A stretch of DNA of 24,634 bases from a virus (lineage: Duplodnaviria; Caudoviricetes), in the IMG/VR virus record IMGVR_UViG_3300044267_004589, positions 1 through 24,634 of that record; one strand, given 5' to 3'. The translations under genes were made by a program, and so were the position numbers. The notes beneath the pieces are model-generated. The model did no database searches, was not told the DNA's origin, and saw only the letters and a program-made list of their open reading frames with translations. This document shows, in pieces, positions 1,253 through 24,570 of this stretch; positions within the stretch are counted from its first letter, which is position 1, and the number at the start of each line of letters is the position of its first letter.

Positions 1253-1519
1253 TCAGGAGTTGTTTTCTTTATTTGAACGTGAAACCAGCCGCAATGTAAA
1301 CGTAAAGAACTCAAGTTCTGTGCTCTGATCTTCTATGGGTAACACAGACGATACCGATACCATTCTATTGTCGCGGATCTGGTTATCAATCTTTACTAAT
1401 ATTCCAATATGATCGATCCAGTCATTTGTTTCTTCCGAATATTTAGACCAAGACACAATATCGCCAACTTGCAGCTTCTCAGCAACAGAGTGTCCGAATT
1501 CTTTTGTATTAGCGTTCAT
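1253..1519 (-). CDS. Small SH3/KOW-like beta-barrel protein (VGDLV family)
   Basis: LQVGDIVSW...HIGILVKI pattern; CCTATTTA 7 nt upstream. Confidence 0.65.
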   Translation of the reverse strand: MNANTKEFGHSVAEKLQVGDIVSWSKYSEETNDWIDHIGILVKIDNQIRDNRMVSVSSVLPIEDQSTELEFFTFTLRLVSRSNKENNS

Positions 1520-1985: not shown

Positions 1986-2237
1986 TTAAAAACCACAACT
2001 TAAATTTTTGAGACAACCCACTTCATGTTCGAGATTTCTCGCATAGATTGTTTCATTAAGTAAGTATTGGTTGTTTAGTTCTTCGAACAGCGGACTGCAA
2101 TTGTCCATGAAAAATAATTTATCATACCATATCCATTTTACAATAAAGTTGTCTTTTTGTGAATCAATAATAATGCCTAATTTTATATTTTTTTTTGTAA
2201 ATCGTAGTCCGACTAAATCACCTAAATTAAAATTCAT
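1986..2237 (-). CDS. Small SH3/KOW-like protein (VGDLV family)
   Basis: MNFNLGDLVGL...KLGIIID...FIVKW; alternative TTG start at 2273. Confidence 0.65.
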   Translation of the reverse strand: MNFNLGDLVGLRFTKKNIKLGIIIDSQKDNFIVKWIWYDKLFFMDNCSPLFEELNNQYLLNETIYARNLEHEVGCLKNLSCGF

Positions 2238-4174: not shown

Positions 4175-5348
4175 TTTTGTTTTTCGCCTCCGCATAACGA
4201 GTTGTCGGCGCCTGTTGTTGTCCAATTTTCTTGTCAAGAGAGGCAAACCTGTTGCTCGCATCAATTGCTTCTCTGGTTGCTGGGCATTTGAGCATTCTTA
4301 AGAATACAGTGTGTATCTTATACTCTTTAGCAGGAAATTTGGCATAGTCGACACCATATCTGGTAACTAGATTTTTATGATCACATAAAATATCTAAATC
4401 TTCCTTGGTAACGTTTCCGCCTAAGCGAGTTCTCAAGGCTTTAAAATCGGCATATAATTCTCCTAATTCATTCGACCACTGATTCAGAGTGAAATCACCC
4501 TCAAAACCACCTGAACGAGTCATATTATTCGGTAGATTAAATATTTTTCCTAACTCAGCTGTCGCGATGCTAGTTAAAATGAATTTGCCACCTGAAAACA
4601 TCTCCAAAGTACCTTCCATGAGGTGTTCAAATTCGTGAGTTAGCCCGACCATTCGCGATATCCCAGCTTGAGCTTTGAATTTTTCTTCATTATCCCATGG
4701 AAAATTAGAATTCAGTTGTAATTGAATTGGTCTGATCTGTCCATCGTCGTACTGACCAGTTGAAATTGATGCATAAGCATTTTTTGGCAGCGTGGACGGG
4801 TCCACGAATCCATATGGGAACTTTTTAATAAACTTGACTATGTTGGGATATAATGATTTCATGTAAGCGTCTGCGGCCGTTTTCTGATCACCATTAAAAA
4901 TTTTATCTGCGAACACTGCGACAATTCTAGAGCCGTCAGGATTTGTGGGCTTCCAATTCTCTAAAGATTTATCTTTAAGTGATTCGATCATTTGTATTAA
5001 TTCGCGGTTTTTAATTTTAGATAATTTAGCTGGTCCGGTCGGGGCATGGTCATGTTTATGTTTTTTCATTCCTGCCCGAGCTACGCTTGGGATCATCTGA
5101 CTAGCCGCTACTGCTCCGGCCGCAGTCGCCGCTTTTTTTAAAAATGAGCGTCTAGATAAATTCGGTTCTTGCTCAACCAATAATAACAAATCTTTTTGAG
5201 TGCCCCCTTCATTCAATATTTTGACAAATAATTCTTTTATTTGCTTAAAGGTCTCGTCATTGAATGTTTGCTCAGTTAATAAAGAATATCTACGAAGGTT
5301 ATCATCTTCTTTTAAATACTTCCGCCAATTTTCCATTAAAAGTTTCAT
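4158..5348 (-). CDS. Putative zinc metallopeptidase with MKLLMENWRKYLKE leader and an internal twin-arginine signal-like segment
   Basis: THEFEH (4623-4637) plus ELYA; SRRSFLKKAATAAGAVAASQMIPSVARA at residues 65-92. Confidence 0.65.
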   Translation of the reverse strand: MKLLMENWRKYLKEDDNLRRYSLLTEQTFNDETFKQIKELFVKILNEGGTQKDLLLLVEQEPNLSRRSFLKKAATAAGAVAASQMIPSVARAGMKKHKHDHAPTGPAKLSKIKNRELIQMIESLKDKSLENWKPTNPDGSRIVAVFADKIFNGDQKTAADAYMKSLYPNIVKFIKKFPYGFVDPSTLPKNAYASISTGQYDDGQIRPIQLQLNSNFPWDNEEKFKAQAGISRMVGLTHEFEHLMEGTLEMFSGGKFILTSIATAELGKIFNLPNNMTRSGGFEGDFTLNQWSNELGELYADFKALRTRLGGNVTKEDLDILCDHKNLVTRYGVDYAKFPAKEYKIHTVFLRMLKCPATREAIDASNRFASLDKKIGQQQAPTTRYAEAKNKNETPT

Positions 5349-8101: not shown

Positions 8102-8806
8102 TTACTCTTTCATTGATTTAGAACCACGACATTTCCATTTTTTGCGAGATAATGCATTGGCACATGGAGGGTTTTTGCACTTTTTAATCTTTGCTGAGCG
8201 CGCACAGTATGCATCACCCTTCTTTGTACCGGGCCTGATGCGATCTCCACCGTCTTTTGCCTTTCCAGATTGACCATATGACCGGCATCTACCGTTTACA
8301 CGCTTCACGTAACGTTTTCCTTTGGCTTTTTTACAAGGTTTTTTCTTTTTCTTCTTTTTTTTTTCGTCTAAATCGTTTAAAACTGCTTCAACTTCTTCAC
8401 CAATGATATCATAAAGGTCTTGTTGTTCTTTGGTGATTTTTTTCCATGCTTTTTTAGATGGTCTATCTTCTGCACAATCTCCTGTTTTGGGCTTTCCTTT
8501 GCATCTTTTTTGTTTAGCGCGCATATTATCAAAAAAGTTGCCACCTTCTTCAAGTTCATCTTCTTTAATATTCTCCTGTACGCCATAGGTTTTACAGGGG
8601 TCTTGTCCACATCCGCAATTCTTTTTTTCACCCTCTTTTAAATCACTGTTATCAGTCTCATCAAGTATTTGTTGTATACGTTTCGCTTGAGTAGCATGCA
8701 TTTTGGATGCATTCTCCAGTTCTCCAACAATATCTTTTAATTCTTCTTCTTGTTCTTTTGTGTGTGATTCTAAGAATAGTCGCCAATTATTGTGAATTTT
8801 ATTCAT
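8102..8806 (-). CDS. Hypothetical protein, acidic N-half and Lys/Cys-rich C-half (GDAYCARS...WKC); possible internal head protein
   Basis: MNKIHNNWRLFLE leader; GGAG RBS and CTATTTA upstream. Confidence 0.75.
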   Translation of the reverse strand: MNKIHNNWRLFLESHTKEQEEELKDIVGELENASKMHATQAKRIQQILDETDNSDLKEGEKKNCGCGQDPCKTYGVQENIKEDELEEGGNFFDNMRAKQKRCKGKPKTGDCAEDRPSKKAWKKITKEQQDLYDIIGEEVEAVLNDLDEKKKKKKKKPCKKAKGKRYVKRVNGRCRSYGQSGKAKDGGDRIRPGTKKGDAYCARSAKIKKCKNPPCANALSRKKWKCRGSKSMKE

Positions 8807-9251
8807 TTTTAGTTATCTCCAAAGCTTTCTCCAATAAATAGATCGGAATTTCACTATCTTCTATGTCTTTTATATCATTAATTGTGGCCCATTTGTAGGC
8901 ATCGTGCTCAATTTCGCCGGTATGAGGGTTTGGTTTGTCGATATTAATGCTACCAGACCAATTTCTTGTCAAAAAATAGTACTTTTTGGGCTTCGGTTTG
9001 CCAAGAAAGACAAGATCTTCGGTGTTGCATAGCAAATTAGTCTCTTCATCAAGCTCTCTAACAGCACCAGACTCAATTGATTTGTCATCTTCATCAATGT
9101 GTCCGCCGGGAAGCGTCCATTGTCCCGCTCTATCATCTATATCGGACCGTCTAATAATTAAGAATCTTTGTTTTTCGTCTAAACACGCAACAACGCCTAC
9201 AGTCTTTAACTCACCTTCTGTCAAGTATTGATTCCATTGTTTAAATTTCAT
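8799..9251 (-). CDS. Nudix hydrolase with MKFKQWNQYLTE leader
   Basis: WTLPGGHID...AVRELDEETNL Nudix box. Confidence 0.9.
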   Translation of the reverse strand: MKFKQWNQYLTEGELKTVGVVACLDEKQRFLIIRRSDIDDRAGQWTLPGGHIDEDDKSIESGAVRELDEETNLLCNTEDLVFLGKPKPKKYYFLTRNWSGSINIDKPNPHTGEIEHDAYKWATINDIKDIEDSEIPIYLLEKALEITKNE

Positions 9252-9262
9252 GCTAATCTCTT

Positions 9263-9985
9263 CTAACAAAAGTTTAATTTATTATATTTGCAAATTGTCT
9301 TAATTGGTTTTTTAATATCTAGCTTAGTGATTGGTACAACCCATATCATATCTTCAACGATTGCTAATGATGGATAATACTCAGCATCTACACCCCACAA
9401 TACACCCACGACTTCGCCACTTTTGTTAAATATTACTGATCCAGAACAACCAAACCACCCATATGTGTGTAAAATAATTTGTTGCCCAGAACCTTCTTTA
9501 TTCTCATATCCAGCAACACGACCACGAATACTCATTAATTTGTGTGAAGATGGGTACCCAGAGTAAGTTATGGATTCACCAACTCCTAATATTTGTTTCG
9601 TTGGTCTGTATTTAATCGGATCTATAAATCTAAACTCTTCTTGTACGAAAAGAACAGCAATATCGTCGGTGGCATTTTGATATACTACAATTCCTTGGCG
9701 TGTCTCTTCACCCTTGCTAATCAAATAGGTAGAACCCATTCCTCGATCAGCAACATGTTGAGCAGTAAGCACAAAATGGAATCCTTTATGGACCATGTAG
9801 GTTCCGGATCCGTGACCTCCGCCCTCAGTCCAAATTTTAACAGCCGCTTCTCTTACCTTCATTTCTATTTTAGAAATTGAAGAATTGACCGACTCAACAA
9901 TCATTGCTTGTTGAGCTTTTTCAGTTGCTTGCGCTGGTTGAACTAACATTGTCAAGCTTAAAAGTAGTAAAGATAAATATTTCAT
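9263..9985 (-). CDS. Secreted trypsin-like (S1) serine protease
   Basis: Sec signal MKYLSLLLLSLTMLVQPAQA; triad motifs LTAQHV, DIAVL, GCSGS; GAGGG RBS. Confidence 0.9.
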   Translation of the reverse strand: MKYLSLLLLSLTMLVQPAQATEKAQQAMIVESVNSSISKIEMKVREAAVKIWTEGGGHGSGTYMVHKGFHFVLTAQHVADRGMGSTYLISKGEETRQGIVVYQNATDDIAVLFVQEEFRFIDPIKYRPTKQILGVGESITYSGYPSSHKLMSIRGRVAGYENKEGSGQQIILHTYGWFGCSGSVIFNKSGEVVGVLWGVDAEYYPSLAIVEDMIWVVPITKLDIKKPIKTICKYNKLNFC

Positions 9986-10201: not shown

Positions 10202-10426
10202 TCAATCAGCTTTAGAAATTATCTGCAATGAATTAACCTGATATTCCATTATCTTGTGCTGCTTGACACAGTAAACAGGAACAAATGGAAACAAAAGTTC
10301 TTGATCAAGTCGGGCCGGCTTTGCCACAAATCCTATATGCCCATCAGTGGTTTTTACTAAATCCCCTATGTTATAACATGTTAACCAGCCGTTACCTGTG
10401 ATGGTGTAGCTATTATCATACTTCAT
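10202..10426 (-). CDS. Small SH3/KOW-like protein (VGDLV family)
   Basis: YNIGDLVKTTDGHIGFV...LQIIS. Confidence 0.7.
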   Translation of the reverse strand: MKYDNSYTITGNGWLTCYNIGDLVKTTDGHIGFVAKPARLDQELLFPFVPVYCVKQHKIMEYQVNSLQIISKAD

Positions 10427-10722
10427 TAGTTTTCGCCTCGATTTTCGATTGAGTGCAATTCTACTGTACCAATTGCGATGGACATTTTTAAACCTTCTTC
10501 TTCTAATATAGCAGTTGTTTGGTTGTTTGTGTTTTCGTTGGTTTTAAATAACTTAACTTCCCATAAAAAGACATCATCCTTAATCATATCGATATGTCTT
10601 ATTCGTTTAGATAAAAAACCACGAAAATCTGAGATGTGATCGATGACCATATCTCCGACATTCAACATAACGTTATTGGCTACATCCCGCAACTTATTAA
10701 TATCAGATTTATTTTCGCTCAT
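10426..10722 (-). CDS. Small SH3/KOW-like protein (VGDLV family)
   Basis: LNVGDMVID...RGFL...WEVK; ATG 10722 with GGAGG RBS. Confidence 0.7.
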   Translation of the reverse strand: MSENKSDINKLRDVANNVMLNVGDMVIDHISDFRGFLSKRIRHIDMIKDDVFLWEVKLFKTNENTNNQTTAILEEEGLKMSIAIGTVELHSIENRGEN

Positions 10723-10975
10723 TACAGACCTCCATTCGGCCAGAATTAAGCATACCAAGTAAACCATTTTCTGTATATGGTTGATTTTTATTTATTTCAT
10801 CGGTAGCGGGACCGGTCCAGATTATATCCCAAGCCCATATTTGTGGCTCATGTTCCCAACTCTCCATTACATCATAACGTTTGACAAGTATTCCAATATC
10901 TCCGCTAATAATATCCTCTATCATCATTCCGGCATGCAAGTCAGTTTCACAATATTGTTCAATGTAATATTTCAT
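10709..10975 (-). CDS. Small SH3/KOW-like protein (divergent VGDLV family)
   Basis: LHAGMMIED...DIGILVK...WDIIW; resembles neighbour 10426..10722. Confidence 0.65.
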   Translation of the reverse strand: MKYYIEQYCETDLHAGMMIEDIISGDIGILVKRYDVMESWEHEPQIWAWDIIWTGPATDEINKNQPYTENGLLGMLNSGRMEVCNERK

Positions 10976-11282
10976 CAATGTAATTAGCTTCTGACGAATT
11001 GATTAGAAGCCAATCACCCTTGGTCCGTATGCATTCGGTTATAAAAATTGATAGTTTTTCTGGATCGTTGATAGAACTTTTGTCAATATTGCATACCTTT
11101 TTTGGATAATAACGGTCTGCGCTATTTGGATTCTCGCGAATTATGCTGCATTCCTGCAATTGTGGTGAGTGCGAAAAAGCATTGAATTCAGTGTTTAATG
11201 TAGCCATACAAAGACCGGCGCCAAAAGAGGCGAAGAGTAGAAATTTCATTTTTTTCCCAAAATTTTTATCATACTTAGTCAC
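10959..11282 (-). CDS. Hypothetical membrane-anchored or exported protein
   Basis: Basic N-terminus followed by hydrophobic FLLFASFGAGLCMA. Confidence 0.55.
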   Translation of the reverse strand: MTKYDKNFGKKMKFLLFASFGAGLCMATLNTEFNAFSHSPQLQECSIIRENPNSADRYYPKKVCNIDKSSINDPEKLSIFITECIRTKGDWLLINSSEANYIDEILH

Positions 11283-11691: not shown

Positions 11692-11994
11692 TCACCTATT
11701 ACGTGGAATATCGTCCACAGAGTCGTATATGTGATTATCAAACATTAGCTTTTCCTCCACATGCATTAGGTCTCTATCATAATGGTACGATACACTGCCC
11801 CTAGTATGGGGCGGTCTGTTGAACCATTTAATTCCACATAAGTACACAGTGCCTGCAATCCCTCTCTCGATTACTTCAACGACTGTTCCCCAGCTTGTAC
11901 GGCCCTTAATGAACTTCTCCCGGTCACATAATGTAACAACGTCGCCAAGCTTAATCTCGCCCGTTTTATAGCTACGCAATTTTAATTCATTCAT
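11692..11994 (-). CDS. Small SH3/KOW-like protein (VGDLV family)
   Basis: IKLGDVVTL...WGTVVEV...IKWF. Confidence 0.7.
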   Translation of the reverse strand: MNELKLRSYKTGEIKLGDVVTLCDREKFIKGRTSWGTVVEVIERGIAGTVYLCGIKWFNRPPHTRGSVSYHYDRDLMHVEEKLMFDNHIYDSVDDIPRNR

Positions 11995-12251
11995 GGCGAT
12001 ATCCGCCTAAGATGCTCGGACACCTCTGTTGTAGATTTTCCACTGGCAAACCAATGTACTGTATACAACACAAATGAATCATATGATATTGTACCTATAG
12101 GCGAATTAATCTTAACTTCTGTTATAATACCCAATGTGCCGTCTTTGTCATCGATCATTAGATAGTCTGGTGTATAATGATATCCATGAAATGTCACCAA
12201 ATCGCCAACAAAGAGCTGTTCGCCCTTTTCGATCTCAACGTTGTCGCCCAT
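11991..12251 (-). CDS. Small SH3/KOW-like protein (VGDLV family)
   Basis: LFVGDLVTF...LGIITEV...YTVHWF...LRRIS. Confidence 0.7.
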   Translation of the reverse strand: MGDNVEIEKGEQLFVGDLVTFHGYHYTPDYLMIDDKDGTLGIITEVKINSPIGTISYDSFVLYTVHWFASGKSTTEVSEHLRRISP

Positions 12252-12263
12252 AATATATATATG

Positions 12264-12521
12264 TCAATGATTACATTGCTTGTATTTTTGTAATCGCCCA
12301 ATTGTATGCATCCAATCTTGGGACATCATCGAGTTTGGCTTCTTTACCCACCATATTCTTGCCATGTTCATCTTTGGGTACTCCTCACCTCTCTGTCTGT
12401 CAAATAACTCGATTACGACCGCTATACCACCATGGCATGTACATGTCACTAGGTCGCCTACCGCAAGCTCATGCTTGGGTGGTATCTCAAAGAAGTCCTT
12501 CACCCTTTCCCAATATCCCAC
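12264..12521 (-). CDS. Small SH3/KOW-like protein (VGDLV family)
   Basis: LAVGDLVTC...IAVVIEL...ARIWW. Confidence 0.7.
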   Translation of the reverse strand: MGYWERVKDFFEIPPKHELAVGDLVTCTCHGGIAVVIELFDRQRGEEYPKMNMARIWWVKKPNSMMSQDWMHTIGRLQKYKQCNH

Positions 12522-13275: not shown

Positions 13276-13467
13276 TCACTGACCCCCATCATCTACTGCC
13301 GCATTATATAAACTGTTTACTACAACCACGGCAACCTGTTGTAAACATTTAAGAGAGTTATTATATAACGTGTAGTTACTATCATCTTTGTCTACCACTA
13401 CACACAACGACCTTGATCGTCCATCTGATAAGGTTTTTCTTTTTACTAACTCTCCAACCTTAAACAT
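13276..13467 (-). CDS. Small SH3/KOW-like protein (VGDLV family)
   Basis: MFKVGELVKRK...LCVVVD; GGAGGG RBS. Confidence 0.65.
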   Translation of the reverse strand: MFKVGELVKRKTLSDGRSRSLCVVVDKDDSNYTLYNNSLKCLQQVAVVVVNSLYNAAVDDGGQ

Positions 13468-15073: not shown

Positions 15074-15152
15074 AGTTTTCTCCTTTCTATACATATAATA
15101 TAACACCCGCAAGGGTAAAAGTCAAGGGTTGAGTTGTCAAGGGGTTGTCAAG
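15074..15152 (-). promoter_or_regulatory. Early promoter cassette P3
   Basis: Boxes 15146 and 15135, -35 TTGACT 15120-25, -10 15097-102; 56/60 identical to P1. Confidence 0.9.
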
Positions 15153-15364
15153 TCCACTTTGTCAAGATCCTGCACTGAACAAACGCCAGAGTTGCCAGTG
15201 TGCGGCCAGAATACTTTAACAAGTCCCGATCCAGATCCGTGATCCCGCGTCATCAGTTTCTTGAGAACAAGCCCAACAGTGGGCTTACGCTTTTTGCCAG
15301 TGGCAGGGTTCCAGATGGTTGCGTTGCTGCGAACGAGGTCGCCGGGTTGAAGATCGTAGTTCAT
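15137..15364 (-). CDS. Small SH3/KOW-like protein (VGDLV family)
   Basis: LQPGDLVRS...VGLVLK...VKVFW...DLDKV; stop lies inside a P3 box. Confidence 0.75.
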   Translation of the reverse strand: MNYDLQPGDLVRSNATIWNPATGKKRKPTVGLVLKKLMTRDHGSGSGLVKVFWPHTGNSGVCSVQDLDKVDLTTP

Positions 15365-16060: not shown

Positions 16061-16139
16061 TTGCTTTCTCCTTTCTACCCTTATAATATAGCACCGAAAC
16101 GGGCAGAAGTCAAGGTTTAAGTTGTCAAGAGGTTGTCAA
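16061..16139 (-). promoter_or_regulatory. Early promoter cassette P5
   Basis: Boxes 16134 and 16123, -35 TTGACT 16108-13, -10 16085-90. Confidence 0.9.
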
Positions 16140-16317
16140 CGAGTCTAAGGTGAGAAGTTTTCTGTACTCTTGGTTCTGTTTCGCCTTTCCATAAAACTTT
16201 AATGTTGGTGTTGCCGGTATACTTTCCAGTCTCGACAACTAAACCAACATCAACGGATTCGCCCTTCCTCCATCGAGATGTTTGAAAGGTAAATGTCACC
16301 AGATCACCGACTTGCAT
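16117..16317 (-). CDS. Small SH3/KOW-like protein (VGDLV family)
   Basis: MQVGDLVTF...VGLVVE...IKVLW...HLRLV; 14-nt overlap with upstream gene. Confidence 0.75.
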   Translation of the reverse strand: MQVGDLVTFTFQTSRWRKGESVDVGLVVETGKYTGNTNIKVLWKGETEPRVQKTSHLRLVDNLLTT

Positions 16318-16789
16318 CTTTGATCTCCGTGATATGGCGACACTTCCGACGCCAGCCAAAACCGGCGCAGGTGCACGTCCATGTGCCTCCGTGATCGGTT
16401 ACCGTGTAGATGTTCCCCTTGCTGCCTTCAACGTCATACGTGCGAACCTCGGCCACTGGAGAGGTATCTGAACGCTGGCGTACAACCATGTACCGGTCCA
16501 AGTCCTCAAAAGTGGTATCATCCGGTACTTCAATCCAGTTTTGACCGGAGATTGCCCACTTTTGATCATTCACGTCAGTATACAGCATCGGCGGCATATC
16601 AACAACGATCGGGGTTTTGTTCATCATCATATCACCAAGTTCTTCAAGGCTAATAAAAAAAGGTTTAAGGTCGATCGGGTTAGCTTCCAGAAACTCGTCA
16701 AGGATCTGCATAATATCCTCATAACGCTCTTGACGTGGTGATTTCTGTTTGCTTCTCCGATACTCGTCGAGGTCAACAAGATCGCCCAT
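16304..16789 (-). CDS. SWIM zinc-finger protein
   Basis: VEGSKGNIYTV...WTCTC-x8-CRH. Confidence 0.8.
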   Translation of the reverse strand: MGDLVDLDEYRRSKQKSPRQERYEDIMQILDEFLEANPIDLKPFFISLEELGDMMMNKTPIVVDMPPMLYTDVNDQKWAISGQNWIEVPDDTTFEDLDRYMVVRQRSDTSPVAEVRTYDVEGSKGNIYTVTDHGGTWTCTCAGFGWRRKCRHITEIKDASR

Positions 16790-17657: not shown

Positions 17658-18872
17658 CTAATCAATCGCGATAATGCGTTCATTTGTTGAGAAGTATGGC
17701 CGTGATGCGTAGTTCTTGGTGGTCATCCACATACGTTGACACTTGGAGGCGACAGGTTTGGGAGCCATTAGATCAGTCAGTACAATGTGACCATCAAACT
17801 CGCGATCGTTCACGTACTTGGTTGGAGCATCGAAGCATGTGCCGCCAGTCAACACGCGCTCAGTTTTACGGGTCTGTCCTTTCTTCCAAATATATACCTT
17901 GTCCTCTGCAACCCGTGTATCAAACGGGATCACGGTAAACTCCGCGATCTCTGCCAGTTTGTTCAGCTCGGAGAAGAACGCGGTCAACATACCATCATCG
18001 ACAGAGCCAGATTGATCAATCGAGATTGCGATCTTGGCATGGCGACGGACACGCTTACCGGGGTGAACCTTTGGGAACCGCTTGTTAAGACGGCGAGGCG
18101 TCGAACGCTTGTCAGAGCGTTGTGAAGTTTTTACGAAGTACCTGAGCACCTTGCGCCAATCGATCTTAGTGGCGATGCGGTCAAGAACGTCCTGACGCAT
18201 GGATGATGATACTGTACCCCAGTTGCGGGCTTTCTCAGCTTCCTCGGCGGCTTTCTTGATAGTTTCCTTCATGCGTTCCTTAGCGATCTCTTGTGTAGTA
18301 CCATCGACCTCACCGAAACCTTGGTGATCGTCAAGAGAGTCAGCACCACCGAAAGCATCGCCGTTACCCTCGCCGTCGCCACCATCTTTCTGCATGTCTT
18401 TCAATGCTTCAAGATACCACTCGTAGGTTTTGAATGGTGGGAGATCCTTGAACATACCTTCACCGGGGATCAGCGCCTTCATTGGCTCGTCGCCAATAGT
18501 AGGGCCGGGGTTTTCTTCCGATGGCAGGTGTCGAGAGATATGACAGTTGATTGACAAGTCCATCGCGATGTTGTCGATCCGCTTGAGTCCATCGGCAGGA
18601 AGCCGACCGGTCACATGCTCAAAGATCAAGTGATAAAACTCATGCATGAGGATACCCAACTTGTGATCATCCGAGAGCGAGCCCATAAACTCAGGGTTGT
18701 AAAGTAGTTCAAACTGAGCACTGTCAGGGTTGACACGAACACCGGCTGTAGGGATCGACGTTGTTGCAATCTTGTCAATACGACGTGAGATAGCAGCGAA
18801 GAACGGCTCACGCATAAGCAAGCGGGCAGTGTGCATGTTCAGGTTGAAAGGCTTGTTAGGCTTGTCGGTCAT
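17658..18872 (-). CDS. DUF2201-like protein: HExxH metallopeptidase domain plus VWA domain
   Basis: HEFYH, NIAMDLSIN, MIDAS DQSGS, GGT, LTD. Confidence 0.9.
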   Translation of the reverse strand: MTDKPNKPFNLNMHTARLLMREPFFAAISRRIDKIATTSIPTAGVRVNPDSAQFELLYNPEFMGSLSDDHKLGILMHEFYHLIFEHVTGRLPADGLKRIDNIAMDLSINCHISRHLPSEENPGPTIGDEPMKALIPGEGMFKDLPPFKTYEWYLEALKDMQKDGGDGEGNGDAFGGADSLDDHQGFGEVDGTTQEIAKERMKETIKKAAEEAEKARNWGTVSSSMRQDVLDRIATKIDWRKVLRYFVKTSQRSDKRSTPRRLNKRFPKVHPGKRVRRHAKIAISIDQSGSVDDGMLTAFFSELNKLAEIAEFTVIPFDTRVAEDKVYIWKKGQTRKTERVLTGGTCFDAPTKYVNDREFDGHIVLTDLMAPKPVASKCQRMWMTTKNYASRPYFSTNERIIAID

Positions 18873-18949
18873 TGTTTTCTCTCCTTACCCTTATAATATA
18901 GTCACTTAAAGGCAATAGGTCAAGGTTATTTGTGTCAAGGGAATGTCAG
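18873..18949 (-). promoter_or_regulatory. Early promoter cassette P7
   Basis: Boxes 18944 and 18933, -35 TTGACC 18918-23, -10 18895-900, TAAGGAG. Confidence 0.9.
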
Positions 18950-19095
18950 GACTTTCCTAACCCGTGAGCCAGAACAGACGCAAGCTGTTCTTCGTTCAAC
19001 GATCGCCGCATTAGTTCTTCGGCTACCTCTTGACCGTGTGTGTGCCATACATGCTGCAAAAATGACAATACTTCTTGAAGTTCTGTTTGAGACAT
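18946..19095 (-). CDS. 49-aa hypothetical protein (MSQTELQEVLSFLQHVWHTHGQEVAEELMRRSL...)
   Basis: Hand-translated; starts after the P8 RBS and stops in the P7 distal box. Confidence 0.7.
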   Translation of the reverse strand: MSQTELQEVLSFLQHVWHTHGQEVAEELMRRSLNEEQLASVLAHGLGKS

Positions 19096-19174
19096 TGTGC
19101 TCTTTCTCCTTACCCTTATAATATAGTCACTTAAAGGCGATAGGTCAAGGTTTAAGTTGTCAAGGGAATGTCAA
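19096..19174 (-). promoter_or_regulatory. Early promoter cassette P8
   Basis: Boxes 19169 and 19158, -35 TTGACC 19143-48, -10 19120-25; 47/48 identical to P7. Confidence 0.9.
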
Positions 19175-19380
19175 GGAAGATCATAATGCGCTCGAAGTCG
19201 AACCTCATCGATCCATCCCTGCTCTCCGTCAATGTGGAGTTTGAACCTCCACCTTTTGTTAGCTATGTCGCCGTACTTGGCGCGTGATGTTTCTTCTTTG
19301 CCGAGAACGATCGCAGGCTTACCGTCATTGACGGAATAAATGAGATCACCGACTTTTAGTTTATCTGTCCACATGGGCAT
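19171..19380 (-). CDS. Small SH3/KOW-like protein (VGDLV family)
   Basis: LKVGDLIYS...PAIVLG; stop lies in the P8 distal box. Confidence 0.75.
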   Translation of the reverse strand: MPMWTDKLKVGDLIYSVNDGKPAIVLGKEETSRAKYGDIANKRWRFKLHIDGEQGWIDEVRLRAHYDLP

Positions 19381-19567
19381 CTGATATTATTAACAAATCT
19401 TCTTCATGGAAGGCCATCTGTTCTTCACTTTTTAACCACTTTACATGGTACTGTATTCGCTTGCCTACCGGCTGGTAGATGCGATTAACTACCCCAACAC
19501 CGTGATGATTCGAGAAAGGTCGCGCAAGGCTCCCAAGTCCTGACAACTTAACTAAATCGCCAATCAT
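19361..19567 (-). CDS. Small SH3/KOW-like protein (VGDLV family)
   Basis: MIGDLVKL...GVGVVNR...YHVKWL...EEDLLIIS. Confidence 0.75.
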   Translation of the reverse strand: MIGDLVKLSGLGSLARPFSNHHGVGVVNRIYQPVGKRIQYHVKWLKSEEQMAFHEEDLLIISDAHVDR

Positions 19568-19595
19568 GGGAGCCCTAAGCGGCGGTCCAAAGGCT

Positions 19596-20675
19596 CTACT
19601 GTGAGCCACCAAGGATCTCCACCAGATGATCGCTCACGCCCTTACCATCGGACGTTTGTGCCTTGTGGAGCGCAATCACGTTGTTAGTGTTGTCAGCTTC
19701 ACCGAGAACGGTCCACAGCTTCATGGCGACCTCGGAAGGCAGTGCTACAAAGTAGTCAGCAAGGTTGGCGATCTGCCCATCGGTCAAGTCCTCAACAAAA
19801 GTCTCGGATGCTGCCATCTTCTCAATCATAGCAGAGTGATCATTGATACCCCACTGCGTAGTTTTGTCGATGGCACCGTTGTCCAGAAGATCCTCGATGG
19901 TCACTTGCCATTCGTACTTTTCAATGAAGTCACGGAGCGATACAGCAGCTTCAAAGCCAACAAACGCAGTTGCAAGATTGAAAAGAAGATTGCTGTCGCC
20001 ATCTTCGTTGAACACACCGGTAGATGCGGCCGTGTCATTGAAGCGTGCCCAGCTACGGCGGGACGGGTAAACCTTGTTAGGCTCGAAGTCATCGCTATGC
20101 TCAAGGTGCTGGCGGTTCTGGTTAATGAAGTCCCACAGGATAGCGTTGACGTTACCTTGTGCCCATGTCAGCCAGTCCTCAGTGGATGGTTCCACGTCGA
20201 ACACAGTCCAACGGTCAAGCTCTGCCGGGTCCATCTCGCCGACCTGATACTGAGCGCCATGCTCGCCACCATTGACGGCGGCGACAATCAGAGTCTCAGG
20301 GTGAAGGTTCCAGCCGTTGATCTTGCGGCTGTCGGTCAACTCGAAAAGACCCTGACGAACCTCCATAGTCGCACGGTCAACCTCATCAAGAAAGAGCATG
20401 ACGGGCTGCGTACAGGCTGTTACCAGCCAATCAGGAGCGTTCCAAGTGGTAGCCTTGCGACCATCCGAAAGATCGGCGGTGTCAGGCAGACCAAGAAGAT
20501 CACCCTCGGTCATCTGTGAAGCACGACGCTCGACGACTGGCAAGCCGCGAGTCTCGGCAATCTGATAGACTACCTGAGATTTACCGACACCGTGACGGCC
20601 ACGAAGAAGCACCGGAAGGCGCACATCGAGGATGTGTTCTACTGTCGAGAGGAATGTTGTGAAGTCTACTGCCAT
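19596..20675 (-). CDS. MoxR-like AAA+ ATPase
   Basis: Walker A GRHGVGKS, Walker B LFLDEVDR, sensor-1 AAVN, arginine-finger region DPAELDRW; near a VWA partner. Confidence 0.92.
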   Translation of the reverse strand: MAVDFTTFLSTVEHILDVRLPVLLRGRHGVGKSQVVYQIAETRGLPVVERRASQMTEGDLLGLPDTADLSDGRKATTWNAPDWLVTACTQPVMLFLDEVDRATMEVRQGLFELTDSRKINGWNLHPETLIVAAVNGGEHGAQYQVGEMDPAELDRWTVFDVEPSTEDWLTWAQGNVNAILWDFINQNRQHLEHSDDFEPNKVYPSRRSWARFNDTAASTGVFNEDGDSNLLFNLATAFVGFEAAVSLRDFIEKYEWQVTIEDLLDNGAIDKTTQWGINDHSAMIEKMAASETFVEDLTDGQIANLADYFVALPSEVAMKLWTVLGEADNTNNVIALHKAQTSDGKGVSDHLVEILGGSQ

Positions 20676-20791: not shown

Positions 20792-20878
20792 TGGTAGCTG
20801 ATGCGGGACTCGAACCCGCAAGCCCATGCGGGCGCGAGATTTTAAGTCTCGTGTGTATACCAGTTCCACCAATCAGCC
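20792..20878 (-). tRNA. tRNA-Leu(UAA), with encoded CCA
   Basis: Acceptor GGCTGAT/ATCAGCT, anticodon arm CGAGA-CTTAAAA-TCTCG, long variable arm, T arm GCGGG-TTCGAGT-CCCGC, ACCA end. Confidence 0.97.
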
Positions 20879-20885
20879 ATTTCAT

Positions 20886-20954
20886 CCTCTTACCCTTATA
20901 ATATAGTCACTTAACCCTCGCCCGTCAAGGCGAGAGTTGTCAAGCAAATGTCAA
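20886..20954 (-). promoter_or_regulatory. Early promoter cassette P10, upstream of the tRNA
   Basis: Boxes 20949 and 20938, -35 TTGACG 20923-28, -10 20900-05. Confidence 0.9.
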
Positions 20955-21847
20955 GTGTTCCGCATGTCATAGTGTTCTTCAAGTCCGAGATCCCTGATCA
21001 CTTGCACGGTGACACCACTCGGATACGCATAGTCATAGTTGCGTTGCTTCTCATACTTGCGCCCCTGTGTCGGAAACTCACGCAGGATAGCTTTCTCAAG
21101 GCTCTCCGCTGTTGGTTCAAGCCAGCCTTTAGGTGGGTCAAGACCGGGCAGCAGCGATGATGCTGGCAAGTTATCACCCTCGGCGGCTGCGTATGCGCGA
21201 GCCTTTTGGTGGTTCTCCACCAGTCTTTCAAGCCTATCGCGTGAGGTCCACCGATGTTGATCTGGCGCTGCGAGTTTGCGAGCATCAATGTGATAAGCTG
21301 CCAGATTTTGACGGCCAGATACGCATGCATCCCAATCAACCGACTTGATGTAGCGCAAGGTTAAAATGTCTGAGCGGTAGTTTCCATCAGCATCATAGCC
21401 TGACGAACGAATTGGGATCATTGAACCGATACCGATACCCAAGTTCGCGGCTGTCTCAAACGCAGCGATACGGGCCCGGCGCGTTTCTTCAATGAAAACT
21501 TGCTTGTCACGCTTGACATGCGGGCATACACGGCGCGTGTGACCGCGCTCGCCGCAGTATCCGCAAGTCACTTTTTTCATGCGTTCAGCTTTCGCTACCT
21601 TGTTAGTAACCTTCTTGCCGGTAGCAAGATCGATCTTGGTGCGCTTGATGTATAGTTGACGCTTTTCTTCTGCGCGTTGCTCATACCACTTGGCATCGTT
21701 TTCGTTGCCATCGGCGCGGTGTTGTTTGACCATCGCCACAGAACCCTCATACTGATCTTTGATCTGTTCTGAGAGTACGGGACACTTACGCTTGTTGTGT
21801 CCTTGACGATAGCAGTGTGAGCAGGTGACGGTTCCAGACCATGACAT
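20951..21847 (-). CDS. Protein with two CCHC zinc knuckles
   Basis: CSHCYRQGHNKRKC and CGYCGERGHTRRVC (C-x2-C-x4-H-x4-C). Confidence 0.85.
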   Translation of the reverse strand: MSWSGTVTCSHCYRQGHNKRKCPVLSEQIKDQYEGSVAMVKQHRADGNENDAKWYEQRAEEKRQLYIKRTKIDLATGKKVTNKVAKAERMKKVTCGYCGERGHTRRVCPHVKRDKQVFIEETRRARIAAFETAANLGIGIGSMIPIRSSGYDADGNYRSDILTLRYIKSVDWDACVSGRQNLAAYHIDARKLAAPDQHRWTSRDRLERLVENHQKARAYAAAEGDNLPASSLLPGLDPPKGWLEPTAESLEKAILREFPTQGRKYEKQRNYDYAYPSGVTVQVIRDLGLEEHYDMRNT

Positions 21848-21926
21848 AATGATTTCTCCTTTCTATACTTATAATATAACAACCTGACGGGCTAAGTCAA
21901 GTTAAACTTTGTCAAGCAGTTGTCAA
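21848..21926 (-). promoter_or_regulatory. Early promoter cassette P11
   Basis: Boxes 21921 and 21910, -35 TTGACT 21895-900, 16 bp, -10 21873-78. Confidence 0.9.
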
Positions 21927-22100
21927 GAGAGTTAAACTATTTTTGCAGCACCACTCTTTGCGACCGGGACCGAACAGGGATTCGCCCTGTGTTGTCCATA
22001 ACACATGCACCGCTGCTAAACTGGATTCAGCATTGTTCATATCCAGCACAATACCGATCTGCTCGGTAAGAAAATGTCTAACAATATCACCTACTTGCAC
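21912..22100 (-). CDS. VGDLV array member 14
   Basis: GTG start, MQVGDIVRH; stop lies in a P11 box. Confidence 0.8.
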   Translation of the reverse strand: MQVGDIVRHFLTEQIGIVLDMNNAESSLAAVHVLWTTQGESLFGPGRKEWCCKNSLTLLTTA

Positions 22101-22251
22101 TGATCACCTCCAAGTATTGCGGTTGAAAGGCACACATGCGATTGTTGCTAATCAGCATGACGCCATACAAATCGGATACCTTGAAGTGTTCGACAATGAT
22201 GCCCATGCCACAACTTCCCGTCAAACATTTAACTAAGTCACCGACTTTCAT
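22087..22251 (-). CDS. VGDLV array member 13, 54 aa (MKVGDLVKCLTGSCGMGIIVEH...LEVISASR)
   Basis: Hand-translated; below the ORF-track cutoff. Confidence 0.8.
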   Translation of the reverse strand: MKVGDLVKCLTGSCGMGIIVEHFKVSDLYGVMLISNNRMCAFQPQYLEVISASR

Positions 22252-22414
22252 TGATCACCTCAAGATTCTGCGGACGGAAAGGGTAGATTGTATCATGTCC
22301 GTGCATCTTTACCTTGTACTGTGTATTGCCATGCAGTGAAGGCCATACCTCAACAATGAGTCCCAATGGTCTACCAGACACCGATGCACATATAACCAAG
22401 TCACCGACTTTCAT
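22238..22414 (-). CDS. VGDLV array member 12, 58 aa (MKVGDLVICASVSGRPLGLIVEV...LEVINESR)
   Basis: Hand-translated; first gene after P12. Confidence 0.8.
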   Translation of the reverse strand: MKVGDLVICASVSGRPLGLIVEVWPSLHGNTQYKVKMHGHDTIYPFRPQNLEVINESR

Positions 22415-22487
22415 ACCTCTCCCTTACCCTTATAATATAACACCCACACAGGAAAAGTCAATCAAAGTTGTGTCAGGGAAATGTCAA
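22415..22487 (-). promoter_or_regulatory. Early promoter cassette P12
   Basis: Boxes 22482 and 22471, -35 TTGACT 22456-61, 16 bp, -10 22434-39. Confidence 0.85.
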
Positions 22488-22636
22488 GAAGCATTTACTA
22501 ACTGCATGTATTCGATGGCTACTTTGTTGCCATTGTGAAGTTTAACGAACCTGCCGGTTTCTCTCTTGCCCCACACTTCCACGATGATGCTGTGGTTCCT
22601 ATGGTATCTGTCATATACCAGATCACCGACTTTCAT
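22484..22636 (-). CDS. VGDLV array member 11, 50 aa (MKVGDLVYDRYHRNHSIIVEV...MQLVNAS)
   Basis: Hand-translated; ATGA overlap; stop lies in the P12 distal box. Confidence 0.8.
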   Translation of the reverse strand: MKVGDLVYDRYHRNHSIIVEVWGKRETGRFVKLHNGNKVAIEYMQLVNAS

Positions 22637-22833
22637 GCACTCACCTTCTTTAGATCATAGTCCCACATTGATTCACTCACGCCTCCGCAAGTCCACACAA
22701 CCTTGAACACATCGTTGCCCTTGGCACGCGGCTGTTCAACTTTAGCCACAATGATGCCCCTGTGACCCGAAGGATAATAGCCCCGTGTGTCTCCATGTAG
22801 AAATATCGACTCGACCAGATCACCGACTTGCAT
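22633..22833 (-). CDS. VGDLV array member 10
   Basis: MQVGDLVES...RGIIVA...FKVVW. Confidence 0.8.
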   Translation of the reverse strand: MQVGDLVESIFLHGDTRGYYPSGHRGIIVAKVEQPRAKGNDVFKVVWTCGGVSESMWDYDLKKVSA

Positions 22834-22990
22834 TTAATACCTCCAGCCGCAAGCCACATTCGATCTTGGGCTTGTGTTCATCTGTCCACATGACCCACAC
22901 ATCGGCAGGCTTTGCCCATCGCTTTTTACACGGTCCCATAACAAGACCAACCGATCCTCTGAAAGCTACTAATGTTCCTGTTTTAATCAC
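22820..22990 (-). CDS. VGDLV array member 9, 56 aa (MIKTGTLVAFRGSVGLVMG...VWVMW...LEVLNASR)
   Basis: Hand-translated; GTG start after GGAG. Confidence 0.75.
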   Translation of the reverse strand: MIKTGTLVAFRGSVGLVMGPCKKRWAKPADVWVMWTDEHKPKIECGLRLEVLNASR

Positions 22991-23165
22991 TTATAATCTC
23001 CAACCACTTAACGGGCTCCCATGATACCTCTGCGTCTTGAATCCAGTAGACTTTAACGCGGGTGTGGCTTGTTCCACGATTGATGCCATCGGGTTTCGTT
23101 TGTAAAACAATGCCCGTGATTGGCTCAACGCTCTGCGGCATACATATCAGATCACCGACTTTCAT
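22983..23165 (-). CDS. VGDLV array member 8
   Basis: MKVGDLICM...TGIVLQ...VKVYW...WLEIIS. Confidence 0.8.
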   Translation of the reverse strand: MKVGDLICMPQSVEPITGIVLQTKPDGINRGTSHTRVKVYWIQDAEVSWEPVKWLEIISD

Positions 23166-23241
23166 ATCTCTCCCAATGATATATATAATATAGCATCATC
23201 GGGCCGTGCCGTCAATAGTTTGTTTGTCAAGCAAATGTCAA
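23166..23241 (-). promoter_or_regulatory. Early promoter cassette P13
   Basis: Boxes 23236 and 23225, -35 TTGACG 23210-15, -10 23187-92. Confidence 0.85.
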
Positions 23242-23387
23242 GAACTTATGCGTTCCCATGCTTCTGAGTTAAAAACCTGATTCGGTGGAAAACCAGCCAC
23301 CTTAAAGTGTGCACCATATCGACCGGTCCACGTCACTATGCTGATCTTGCCGGTTACTTTGTGCTTCACCAGATCACCGACTGTCAC
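23238..23387 (-). CDS. VGDLV array member 7, 49 aa (MTVGDLVKHKVTGKISIVTW...WERISS)
   Basis: Hand-translated; GTG start after GGAGG; stop lies in the P13 distal box. Confidence 0.8.
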   Translation of the reverse strand: MTVGDLVKHKVTGKISIVTWTGRYGAHFKVAGFPPNQVFNSEAWERISS

Positions 23388-23583
23388 TCACAACCTCCAA
23401 CCATTTGACAGGCTCCCATGATACCTCACCATCTTCGATCCAGCATACCTCAACGCGCCTAATAGCGGGGCGTCCAACACCTCCGATGGGTGTGAAACCT
23501 TTGACCTCTCCGTTGCACTGCCTTAAAACAATGCCCGACGCTGGCAGTCCTCCACGCATCCGTACCAGATCACCGGGCTTCAT
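23374..23583 (-). CDS. VGDLV array member 6
   Basis: MKPGDLVRM...SGIVLR...VEVCW...WLEVVSDSR. Confidence 0.8.
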   Translation of the reverse strand: MKPGDLVRMRGGLPASGIVLRQCNGEVKGFTPIGGVGRPAIRRVEVCWIEDGEVSWEPVKWLEVVSDSR

Positions 23584-23786
23584 GCTTCCACCTTGTTCAT
23601 CCACTTCAAAAGCCCGCGATCAATGATCCTCGGGTTTGCCTCTCCGACCATCAAAACCTGATGATTCTCGACCGTCACGCCATCGTCACGATGGATAAAA
23701 GCCTCACCGAGATAAATGGCAATCTTCCCCGCCAAACGCGGCGCTCCCCTGAACCCTTCAAATCTATACAGATCACCTACCTTCAC
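23580..23786 (-). CDS. VGDLV array member 5
   Basis: MKVGDLYRF...IAIYLG. Confidence 0.8.
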   Translation of the reverse strand: MKVGDLYRFEGFRGAPRLAGKIAIYLGEAFIHRDDGVTVENHQVLMVGEANPRIIDRGLLKWMNKVEA

Positions 23787-23955
23787 TTACTACCTCCAAC
23801 CACCTTTCGGGCTCCCATTCAACCTTACCGGGCTTCGGAAGCCATCTTATACCTACCTGCGCGGACTTATGCAGATCGCTGCGGTGAATGTCAACCACAA
23901 CCCCAACAAGCCCTGTATCATAATCTCTCATTTTGACCAAATCTCCGATGTTCAC
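23773..23955 (-). CDS. VGDLV array member 4
   Basis: GTGA overlap; MNIGDLVKM...VGVVVD...VGIRW...WLEVVSEGR. Confidence 0.8.
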   Translation of the reverse strand: MNIGDLVKMRDYDTGLVGVVVDIHRSDLHKSAQVGIRWLPKPGKVEWEPERWLEVVSEGR

Positions 23956-24152
23956 GATATGACCCAAAAGTTTGTAGCATCAGCTTCAAAGCGCGATGCA
24001 TCTGATATACATTGAACAAGGGCATCATCGTCACCATATAGGGTCTTTGTCATCTTGAGGACAAGAAAGACTGCATCTGTCAGAATAGGGGTATTCGTAC
24101 CCGTTCCATCGCAGTCGTCAATAATAAGTTTAACTAAGTCACCGACCCTCAT
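23952..24152 (-). CDS. VGDLV array member 3
   Basis: MRVGDLVKL...VFLVLK. Confidence 0.8.
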   Translation of the reverse strand: MRVGDLVKLIIDDCDGTGTNTPILTDAVFLVLKMTKTLYGDDDALVQCISDASRFEADATNFWVIS

Positions 24153-24313
24153 GCGCTCACCAAAACTTTAACGTCCTGATGAAGTGCGAGGATATTGCGA
24201 GGATGATTTTGTGGCTTGATGTGAACCCCATCCTTCGTGATATTAACAACAACACCCAGCTTCTCGCCGTAGTATTTTGTACGAACTCTAACTAAATCTC
24301 CTACTTTAACCAC
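24149..24313 (-). CDS. VGDLV array member 2, 54 aa (MVKVGDLVRVRTKYYGEKLGVVVNI...VKVLVSA)
   Basis: Hand-translated; GTG start after GGAGG; KOW-like. Confidence 0.8.
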   Translation of the reverse strand: MVKVGDLVRVRTKYYGEKLGVVVNITKDGVHIKPQNHPRNILALHQDVKVLVSA

Positions 24314-24494
24314 TTACAACCTCCATATCCTTAGCCTCAACCCATCCAGTATCGCGGCGGTGTGGCCAGTATACTTGAGCAAGTGGTTGATCCTCGTAGG
24401 CACCCTCGCGCAGCTTGATAACAATACCGATGCGAGCGCGAGCGTGTGACCCCACGGCGTATCGGCTTCTTATAATGTTTCCGACTTCAATCAT
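24306..24494 (-). CDS. VGDLV array member 1
   Basis: MIEVGNIIRS...IGIVIK...AQVYW...DMEVVS. Confidence 0.8.
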   Translation of the reverse strand: MIEVGNIIRSRYAVGSHARARIGIVIKLREGAYEDQPLAQVYWPHRRDTGWVEAKDMEVVSG

Positions 24495-24570
24495 CTGTTT
24501 TCTCCTTACTCAAATAATATAAGACCGCGCAGCGGTTACGGCAACTTTTTTCTTGTCAAGTAAATGTCAA
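24495..24570 (-). promoter_or_regulatory. Early promoter cassette P14
   Basis: Boxes 24565 and 24554, -35 TTGCCG 24539-44, -10 24516-21, TAAGGAG. Confidence 0.85.

Follow-up and report, generated by a model that had tools for sequence, protein, structure and literature searches.

A run of fourteen small genes with a predicted SH3-type barrel fold, joined by overlapping gene ends, in a virus record of the Caudoviricetes

The IMG/VR virus record IMGVR_UViG_3300044267_004589 (Duplodnaviria; Caudoviricetes), from a marine phage that is uncultured, is a single contig of 24,634 nucleotides (nt), which was analysed at its full length and is referred to here as the window. Fourteen consecutive open reading frames (ORFs) were found on its minus strand between 24494 and 21912, named a1 to a14 in the direction of transcription, each coding for 49-69 amino acids (aa) and with no unrelated gene in between, as reported in a preliminary description made from the sequence; six of the fourteen are shorter than 60 aa. 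That description treated the run as one array. It is indeed a run of one family, but two gaps of 72 and 69 nt each hold a promoter cassette and divide it into trains of seven, four and three genes. The features of the run are as follows.

24495..24569, minus strand: promoter cassette of train 1, with two upstream TGACA repeats, a -35 element, 17 nt, TATATT and a Shine-Dalgarno (SD) sequence
24306..24494, minus strand: a1, 62 aa member; orthologue 69% identical, ratio of nonsynonymous to synonymous substitution rates (dN/dS) 0.26
24149..24313, minus strand: a2, 54 aa member; orthologue 83% identical, dN/dS 0.13; net charge +5
23952..24152, minus strand: a3, 66 aa member, acidic; close orthologue not found
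23773..23955, minus strand: a4, 60 aa member, with a GTG start and an alternative TTG at 23967; orthologue 75% identical, dN/dS 0.07
23580..23786, minus strand: a5, divergent member of 68 aa; the model predicts an SH3-type barrel with five strands
23374..23583, minus strand: a6, 69 aa member, with a C-terminal half common to a8
23238..23387, minus strand: a7, 49 aa member closing train 1, its stop inside the TGACA of the following cassette
23166..23240, minus strand: promoter cassette of train 2
22983..23165, minus strand: a8, 60 aa member; predicted five-stranded SH3-type barrel
22820..22990, minus strand: a9, 56 aa member; orthologue 84% identical, dN/dS 0.20; net charge +5
22633..22833, minus strand: a10, 66 aa member; the start of a homology block shared with two relatives lies inside it, a possible half-gene swap
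22484..22636, minus strand: a11, 50 aa member closing train 2; orthologue 96% identical, dN/dS 0.10
22415..22486, minus strand: promoter cassette of train 3
22238..22414, minus strand: a12, 58 aa member
22087..22251, minus strand: a13, 54 aa member
21912..22100, minus strand: a14, 62 aa member closing train 3; its subfamily usually closes trains in relatives too
22081..22115, minus strand: example of the junction repeat of about 35 nt, comprising the SD in the last strand of the upstream gene, the 14-nt overlap and the next start
22232, 22814, 23368, 23767, 16298 and 19340: similar copies of the junction repeat
21848..21925, minus strand: promoter cassette after the array, heading a 298-aa gene

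All fourteen genes contain a start-proximal motif, G[DNT][LI][VIY], and the array region holds 14 such start motifs compared with a mean of 0.025 and a maximum of one in 200 shuffles. The longer pattern given in the preliminary description was found to be loose, as [VIP]GD[LI]V occurs in 10 of the 14 genes, G[ILV]3 in nine, [VI]xW in eight and L[EK][VI][VI]S in four. Pairwise identity within the array has a median of 27% (range 11-55%). Similarity is not limited to the first residues for most of the genes: with the first motif cut off, eight of the fourteen score above all 200 shuffles in a leave-one-out hidden Markov model (HMM) and three more are equalled by at most 3 of the 200, whereas a3, a5 and a7 fail this comparison. 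Array stretches of up to 1250 nt occur with zero differences in contigs of seawater runs, the best of which may be the source sample; the identical stretches in contigs of other seawater runs indicate that the array is not an assembly artefact.

About thirteen further members had been proposed elsewhere in the window. Ten of the 13 candidates score above all shuffles at full length, while three are doubtful (11692-11994, 10709-10978 and 10426-10668) and only four of the 13 score above them without the first motif. The dispersed candidates are listed below.

19361..19567, minus strand: o1, start uncertain
19171..19380, minus strand: o2
16117..16317, minus strand: o3, of the largest subfamily at 60% identity (21 loci)
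15137..15364, minus strand: o4, directly behind a promoter cassette
13276..13467, minus strand: o5
12264-12521, 11991-12251 and 11692-11994, minus strand: o6, o7 and the doubtful o8
10709-10978, 10426-10668 and 10202-10426, minus strand: the doubtful o9 and o10, and o11
1986..2237, minus strand: o12
1253..1519, minus strand: o13

A total of 1798 distinct member proteins were collected. They are almost all stand-alone proteins, with more than 120 aa after the family match in only 4 of 1742 matches and more than 120 aa before it in 6 of 1742. Net charge among 1754 members has a median of 0, being +4 or higher in 14% and -3 or lower in 28%. A membrane location was rejected, with a hydrophobic 19-mer present in 26 of the 1754.

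Neighbouring genes in the array mostly share their ends. Of the 13 borders between genes, eleven are overlaps, which are 14 nt long in five cases, 4 nt in four and 8 nt in two (taking 23955 as the start of a4). Downstream context was available for 1569 distinct members; 768 of these run into a further member in a chain, with an overlap of 14 nt in 639 cases and of 4 nt in 74. In the 14-nt form, the last-strand codons for L-E-V read GGAGGT, which is the SD sequence of the next gene, and the terminal E-S-R-stop reads in the other frame as the M-K-V-G of that gene. The last-strand glutamate is written as GAG in 537 of 562 chained members, compared with 177 of 261 unchained members and 1678 of 3762 interior codons. 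The overlap and this SD-type codon bias make translational coupling of the chained genes likely. Some non-family genes also carry the junction, for example the 161-aa gene at 16304-16789; such cases make up 27 of 1488 contexts, many of them being diverged members. Neither the overlapping junction nor the gene-wise exchange at it, described below, was part of the preliminary description.

The promoter cassettes have a common layout of two TGACA repeats, TTGAC, 16-17 nt, TATATT (often preceded by TG) and an SD sequence. Fourteen of them occur in the window, all between 14544 and 24569 and none below. Eighteen of the 27 candidate members lie in units headed by this repeated sigma-70-type promoter, which agrees with the early suggestion that many members stand behind early-type promoters; the nine below 13.5 kb are outside such units. 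In two complete relatives, uncultured phages of 203 kb and 194 kb (G001 and G002), 14 of 15 and 12 of 12 cassettes respectively lie in the array region. The upstream TGACA repeats, about 11 and 14 nt apart and placed before the -35 element, form a helically phased triple that may be a binding site for a phage or host regulator. The stop codon lies in the TGA of the first TGACA of a cassette in 170 of 801 unchained members. A fold that surpasses 95 of 100 shuffles was obtained for only one cassette of the 14, hence they lack a stable stem-loop as a group, and terminator-like sites number 15 compared with 13.1 expected. The GC content of the window is 34-43% below 14 kb and 46-52% in the region of the promoters and the array; in G002 it peaks at 47% in the corresponding region (90-110 kb) compared with 40.5% overall.

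The fold was predicted for two of the fourteen array proteins. The AlphaFold2 models of a8 (pLDDT, the predicted local distance difference test, 92.9; alignment of 110 rows) and of the outlier a5 (pLDDT 90.9; alignment of seven rows) both have five antiparallel strands with a short helical turn ahead of the last strand. The best solved matches cover the whole chain of each model. Those of a8 are the N-terminal barrel of Hpy99I (Z 8.2, root mean square deviation (rmsd) 1.8, 51 residues aligned), Spt5 KOW (Z 7.7) and PWWP (Z 7.3), and those of a5 are CarD (Z 6.7, rmsd 2.2, 58 aligned), Mfd (Z 6.3, rmsd 2.6, 57 aligned), VapX (Z 6.1) and KOW (Z 6.0). The small SH3-type beta-barrel first suggested from the sequence pattern is thus also what both models predict, and the folded members are assigned to the SH3/KOW/Tudor class by prediction with no single family being picked out. 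In a viral structure library, 25 of the top 50 rows were unnamed entries of one accession block. The Atlas returned only hypothetical viral clusters for a8, the nearest named entries being DsrB and R67 DHFR (<0.9), and DUF4314 and YorP (<0.9) were the nearest named entries for a5.

Sequence searches did not link the family to any named one. None of the 27 window proteins reached the curated cut-off of Pfam, the best PHROGs match had an E-value of 0.009, NCBIfam and PADLOC gave weak matches to single members only, and a search of PDB sequences gave only weak chromo, KOW and CPH matches. PF00467 (KOW) was matched by one of 110 members (E 0.014) and KOW6 by two of the 110. The pattern of the glycine-rich KOW motif occurs in 2 of 1754 members, as does the Sm1 pattern, and the PWWP motif in none of the 1754; the a5 and a8 models have no C-terminal helices. 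Kinship to DUF2158, which the preliminary description had mentioned, was not found among the matches of the 27 window proteins (E<=1) or the 110 members (E<=0.05). The aromatic cage of Tudor methyl-readers consists of three or four conserved residues; in an alignment of the family as a whole, only one aromatic column is conserved, a tryptophan present in 83%. The family profile itself detected 2726 proteins at E<=0.001 among 8000 candidates scored, and the 120 matches listed are all without a Pfam domain and without an informative name. A scan with Rfam found tRNA only.

The short ORFs appear to be maintained as proteins. Eleven of the fourteen array genes have an orthologue of at least 55% identity, and dN/dS is below 1 in all eleven (0.07-0.70, pooled 0.25). 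Pairing by protein identity favours low dN, and the calculation was therefore repeated on 1557 genes, from which 199 disjoint pairs were drawn according to their DNA similarity, gene ends being excluded. The ratio in these pairs is 0.16-0.21 overall, 0.16-0.20 for loops and 0.13-0.23 for cores, with the proportion of nonsynonymous differences (pN) exceeding that of synonymous ones (pS) in 4 of the 199. Values well below 1 show that the genes are kept as proteins, as the earlier reading of the ORFs as coding had assumed. The loops are very unlike between subfamilies, loop 1 alone spanning 5-21 residues across members. However, the term 'hyper-divergent' does not apply in the sense of fast-diversifying loops, since they are fixed within a subfamily; diversifying selection on the loops was rejected because their dN/dS is similar to that of the cores.

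Relatives of the virus were collected through the AAA ATPase encoded next to the array, for which a search of IMG/VR found 235 relatives in 241 candidate stretches; 80 of the 235 AAA loci were kept for analysis, and some of these represent the same phage. At least one family member is present at all 80 loci. A second-round family profile, which at 10 bits gives 2838 matches compared with one in reversed sequence, counts 33 members in G001, 24 of them lying within 7.5 kb, and 30 in G002, 24 of them lying within 14 kb. In G002, labels were assigned to 118 ORFs of at least 170 aa (PHROGs, E<=1e-6; long ORFs cut to 900 aa). They include major head, portal, prohead protease, sheath, tube, baseplate, terminase, DNA polymerase, DnaB and GroEL proteins as well as a UvsX-like recombinase and a RuvC-like resolvase; this set of sheath, tube, baseplate and head genes identifies a myovirus, and we take its head families to be T4-type. 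An integron cassette array would be marked by a tyrosine integrase and attC sites; no integrase was labelled among these 118 ORFs.

The family profile found no member in T4, phiKT1024 or Bacillus phage G. Among 50,697 phage records the best match to a4 had an E-value of 4. The AAA ATPase does have matches in cultured phages, the best 25 of 295 being 25-31% identical. No cultured relative or host was found from the phage records, from the junction pattern in metagenome-assembled genomes (MAGs) or from GroEL homologues, the last giving no taxonomy. The junction pattern occurs in ten stretches of nine MAG records with discordant taxonomy. GTDB MAG records of unrelated taxa contain family arrays, for example a WOR-3 bin 'chromosome' with N gaps; the stretch inspected resembles a phage piece with N gaps, and the MAG matches are therefore likely to be mis-binned phage DNA.

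A comparison of the array between relatives, as proposed in the preliminary description, showed that content and order are scrambled and vary mostly gene by gene. Chained orthologue pairs, which are not independent of each other, were compared for the gene that follows. It is shared by 41 of 47 pairs with at least 95% identity (a figure inflated by duplicate phages), by 12 of 25 in the 85-95% range, by 3 of 37 in the 75-85% range and by 6 of 65 in the 65-75% range. We found 65 distinct blocks of DNA homology of at least 120 nt between the array and the relatives, blocks at locus edges being dropped; 50 comprise one gene, two comprise two genes and 13 comprise part of a gene. The junction and promoter zones make up 34% of the region and hold 62 of the 65 3' ends and 47 of the 65 5' ends of the blocks, some of which end in promoter cassettes. 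One block at 86-90% identity begins within a10, and such intragenic starts mean that half genes are swapped too, or that the first loop diverges faster. In eight DNA runs, joints and loose ends are likewise concentrated at junctions; these were not used, their sides being short (20-35 letters) and possibly derived from other phages. Homologous recombination at the junction is the simplest route for whole-gene exchange and a likely one, and we hold the architecture and the gene-wise exchange taken together with considerable confidence.

The pool from which the genes are drawn is large. Clustering of 1004 members from the 80 loci at 60% identity gave 608 clusters, of which 435 are singletons. 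Of 8867 pairs of members within the same locus, just 7 are at least 60% identical. Each genome is thus a non-redundant draw from a large pool.

Our preferred interpretation, to which we assign a rough probability of 0.45, is that the array is a swappable set of early protein binders of fixed specificity serving host takeover or counter-defence. The fourteen stand-alone mini-genes of one family, with their predicted SH3-type barrel, would be transcribed from the repeated promoters by the host sigma-70 polymerase, and the overlapping gene ends would couple the translation of neighbours. The junctions would serve as crossover points at which related phages swap whole genes, probably through homologous recombination by the phage UvsX-like recombinase. 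Each protein would bind one fixed host protein early in infection, so that the phage would adapt through the choice of fixed binders in its genome and not by mutating their loops. A set of one-partner binders whose use depends on the host would be consistent with the early-type promoters, the stand-alone barrels, the fixed loops, a content free of redundancy and its fast turnover. [quoted passage not shown] A named anti-defence homologue of the members was not found in Pfam, PHROGs, PADLOC/NCBIfam or the family-profile matches listed.

Several observations weigh against this interpretation. SH3-type barrels bind RNA and DNA too, and GoF, the nearest studied phage family, is described as acting at the RNA level (PMC12152347). 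The fold evidence is confined to two of the fourteen array genes and the match is generic, the rows being nearly tied and both Z 8.2 and Z 6.7 falling in the range that the search tool rates as common; Foldseek found no match in the PDB at E<=0.001 for either model. A loop dN/dS near 0.2 speaks against a fast arms race on binding surfaces, and constraint is documented only for subfamilies with a partner, 435 of the 608 being singletons. Regarding the exchange, 18 of the 65 blocks begin inside a gene, so it is not confined to the junctions. The junction being common to all members, this alone makes a block run through it; what is informative is that the blocks stop there. Break points at gene borders can also arise by selection after illegitimate recombination, according to the account in PMC3233612.

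A bolder version of the preferred reading, which we regard as tentative and doubtful as a whole, is that of an integrase-free library of gene cassettes in which the recombination linker, the ribosome site, the stop and the start would all be encoded by the first and last strands of the scaffold, making every member a plug-in. Under the same tentative proposal a marine clade would share a pooled arsenal of hundreds of fixed-specificity SH3 binders against defences or host machinery, with about 30 carried per genome.

The members might instead be nucleic-acid binders of a KOW, LSm or GoF-like kind that tune the stability or translation of host or phage RNA, or act on DNA, early in infection. Spt5/NusG KOW and a single-stranded-DNA-binding PWWP are among the top fold matches, and some members such as a2 and a9 (+5) are basic. 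The median net charge of 0, with only 14% of members at +4 or higher, argues against nucleic-acid binding as a job of the whole family; the KOW and Sm1 patterns are each present in just 2 of 1754 members, and the profile has no link to GoF, MotB.1 or Frd.2 (probability <=0.2%). This alternative is accordingly considered rather unlikely. Less likely still is that the array is mostly a by-product, in which the junction drives gain, loss and swapping, and the products are kept only as folded and harmless, with few useful at once. Its content does turn over fast, 435 of 608 subfamilies are singletons and unrelated genes have acquired the junction too. Against this, the loops are as constrained as the cores, which goes beyond the need of folding alone, recent duplicates are rare (7 of 8867 pairs), members are present at 80 of 80 clade loci and some subfamilies persist in 10-21 loci.

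The best matches of the a5 model, CarD (Z 6.7) and Mfd (Z 6.3), together with the position of the genes behind early-type promoters, raise the idea that a subset mimics the Tudor-like RNA-polymerase-binding domains of CarD, Mfd and NusG and so redirects host transcription. These rows are tied with VapX, KOW and others, however, and sequence kinship of a5 to CarD or Mfd was sought and not found: the a5 profile detected neither among PDB sequences at E<=10, and none of the seven members of that profile matched the Pfam family. Such mimicry could not account for hundreds of different loop sets either, and it is deemed improbable. Still less credence is given to the members being substrate adaptors that deliver host proteins to the neighbouring MoxR-like AAA and DUF2201 metallopeptidase/VWA proteins for remodelling or cleavage. 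The array adjoins the AAA/VWA genes across the clade, two members lie between the AAA and VWA genes in the window, and the Lon specificity factor of the HspQ type (5ycq) has the same fold (Z 6.2); yet the slot between AAA and VWA holds zero, one or two members of different subfamilies, and there are cultured phages with a related AAA gene in whose genomes no member is seen. Lowest in our estimate are virion-packaged internal proteins injected with the DNA like the internal proteins (IPs) of T4, which are described as small and variable with some countering host defences (PMC4122927). The members do not have the repeated N-terminal leader-like motif seen in other window proteins, and their C-terminal ESR is accounted for by the overlap with the next gene.

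Viewed as a system, the array is an unusual case of a paralogue expansion combined with boundary-sequence shuffling, both of which are of known kinds. The nearest likeness in architecture is the shuffling at PeSLs in T4-type phages, where repeated early promoters of sigma-70 type with an upstream stop and a downstream SD sequence occur in a variable region of small ORFans, and where recombination between the repeats swaps genes (as described in PMC2839356 and PMC4122927). PeSLs in these accounts are intergenic and have a terminator stem-loop. A PeSL-type hairpin was rejected for the cassettes of the window, where only 1 of 14 goes beyond 95 of 100 shuffles; most break points in the array fall within coding sequence, in a second repeat, and the genes swapped belong to one family. 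The boundary-sequence model of mosaicism likewise involves homologous recombination at short conserved sequences between genes (as set out in PMC3233612), whereas the boundary in the array consists of the family's own first- and last-strand codons, which double as stop, SD sequence and start.

For the proteins themselves, the T4 proteins GoF and MotB.1 as well as Frd.2, of the 'LSm-like fold', are also early paralogues of a phage that diverge in sequence, have a five-stranded barrel close to domains of SH3 topology and are poorly known in function (as presented in PMC12152347), but they are three dispersed two-domain proteins of 119-141 aa compared with about 30 clustered single-domain genes. 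In hhalign each of the three gave a probability of at most 0.2%, the single sequences being themselves dissimilar, and the proteins may nonetheless be linked at the level of fold. The zinc-ribbon expansion of Bacillus phage G (about 35 copies) is another lineage-specific expansion of one small domain in a large phage (PMC7824862); it involves another fold, the account in that source describes no junction system, and the array family is absent from phage G. Nip is alike by description in being early, in its predicted SH3-like domains and in binding and blocking a defence enzyme, and differs as one multidomain gene of 279 aa (PMC11984713). KOW, Tudor, PWWP, CPH, DsrB, YorP, R67 DHFR and DUF4314 share the overall fold and a weak feature-level resemblance, whereas none of the 27 window proteins reaches the Pfam cut-off and signature motifs are absent. 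A literature search, which left subscription papers and supplements outside its scope, found no description of the family or the junction.

Phages do not usually have paralogue expansions of this size, and the coding ends of the family appear to be its shuffling device. If the members are host-directed binders, the 1798 proteins would amount to a cheaply synthesised library for anti-defence or takeover activities and for their bacterial targets. Through the junction, the boundary-sequence model of phage mosaicism, which is debated, can also be tested directly. If the members turn out to be RNA binders or near-neutral cargo, the interest would be reduced to that of a striking phage genome architecture.

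The other annotated genes in the vicinity of the array are listed below.

20951..21847, minus strand: 298-aa protein, non-member, with two Cys/His knuckle motifs
20792..20878, minus strand: tRNA-Leu(TAA)
19596..20675, minus strand: AAA_5 (MoxR-like) ATPase, the clade marker
17658..18872, minus strand: DUF2201 metallopeptidase/VWA protein
16304..16789, minus strand: 161-aa non-family gene, ending in a family-type junction with 14-nt overlap

The MoxR-like AAA_5 and DUF2201 metallopeptidase/VWA pair (17658-20675) is conserved in the clade, with a slot of variable length between them, about 80-1300 nt. The 298-aa protein has its own promoter and adjoins the tRNA-Leu(TAA) gene; its knuckles are of the form CxxC...H...C, and it is patchy in the clade, being found at 2 viral and 22 metagenome loci. 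The 161-aa protein has a C-terminal CxC...CxH motif, presumably a SWIM-like zinc finger. Further away, the window codes for a 279-aa protein with a HELVH metallopeptidase-type motif and a long Glu-rich tract (368-1207), a 234-aa protein with a Lys/Cys-rich C-terminal half (8102-8806), a NUDIX hydrolase (8799-9269) and, at 9263-9985, a trypsin-like peptidase whose leader is hydrophobic.

The complete relative G002 contains a large sugar-modification cluster at about 46-68 kb, with five nucleotide-sugar epimerases, several glycosyltransferases, aminotransferases, a sulfotransferase and a UDP-glucose dehydrogenase. Its baseplate genes adjoin a 3860-aa ORF, the first 900 aa of which have no PHROG match (E<=1e-6). 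Finally, three otherwise unlike proteins encoded on the minus strand of the window (2652-3239, the region 3236-4174, and 4158-5348) share a leader, MKLL[LM]ENWRK[FY]. Six such leaders were found in G001 and four in G002, and leaders of the form MK[IL]T..L..[IL]I.EE number two and five respectively. We assume that the shared leaders resemble the capsid-targeting leaders cut by a T4-type prohead protease, in which case they would mark a family of packaged proteins.

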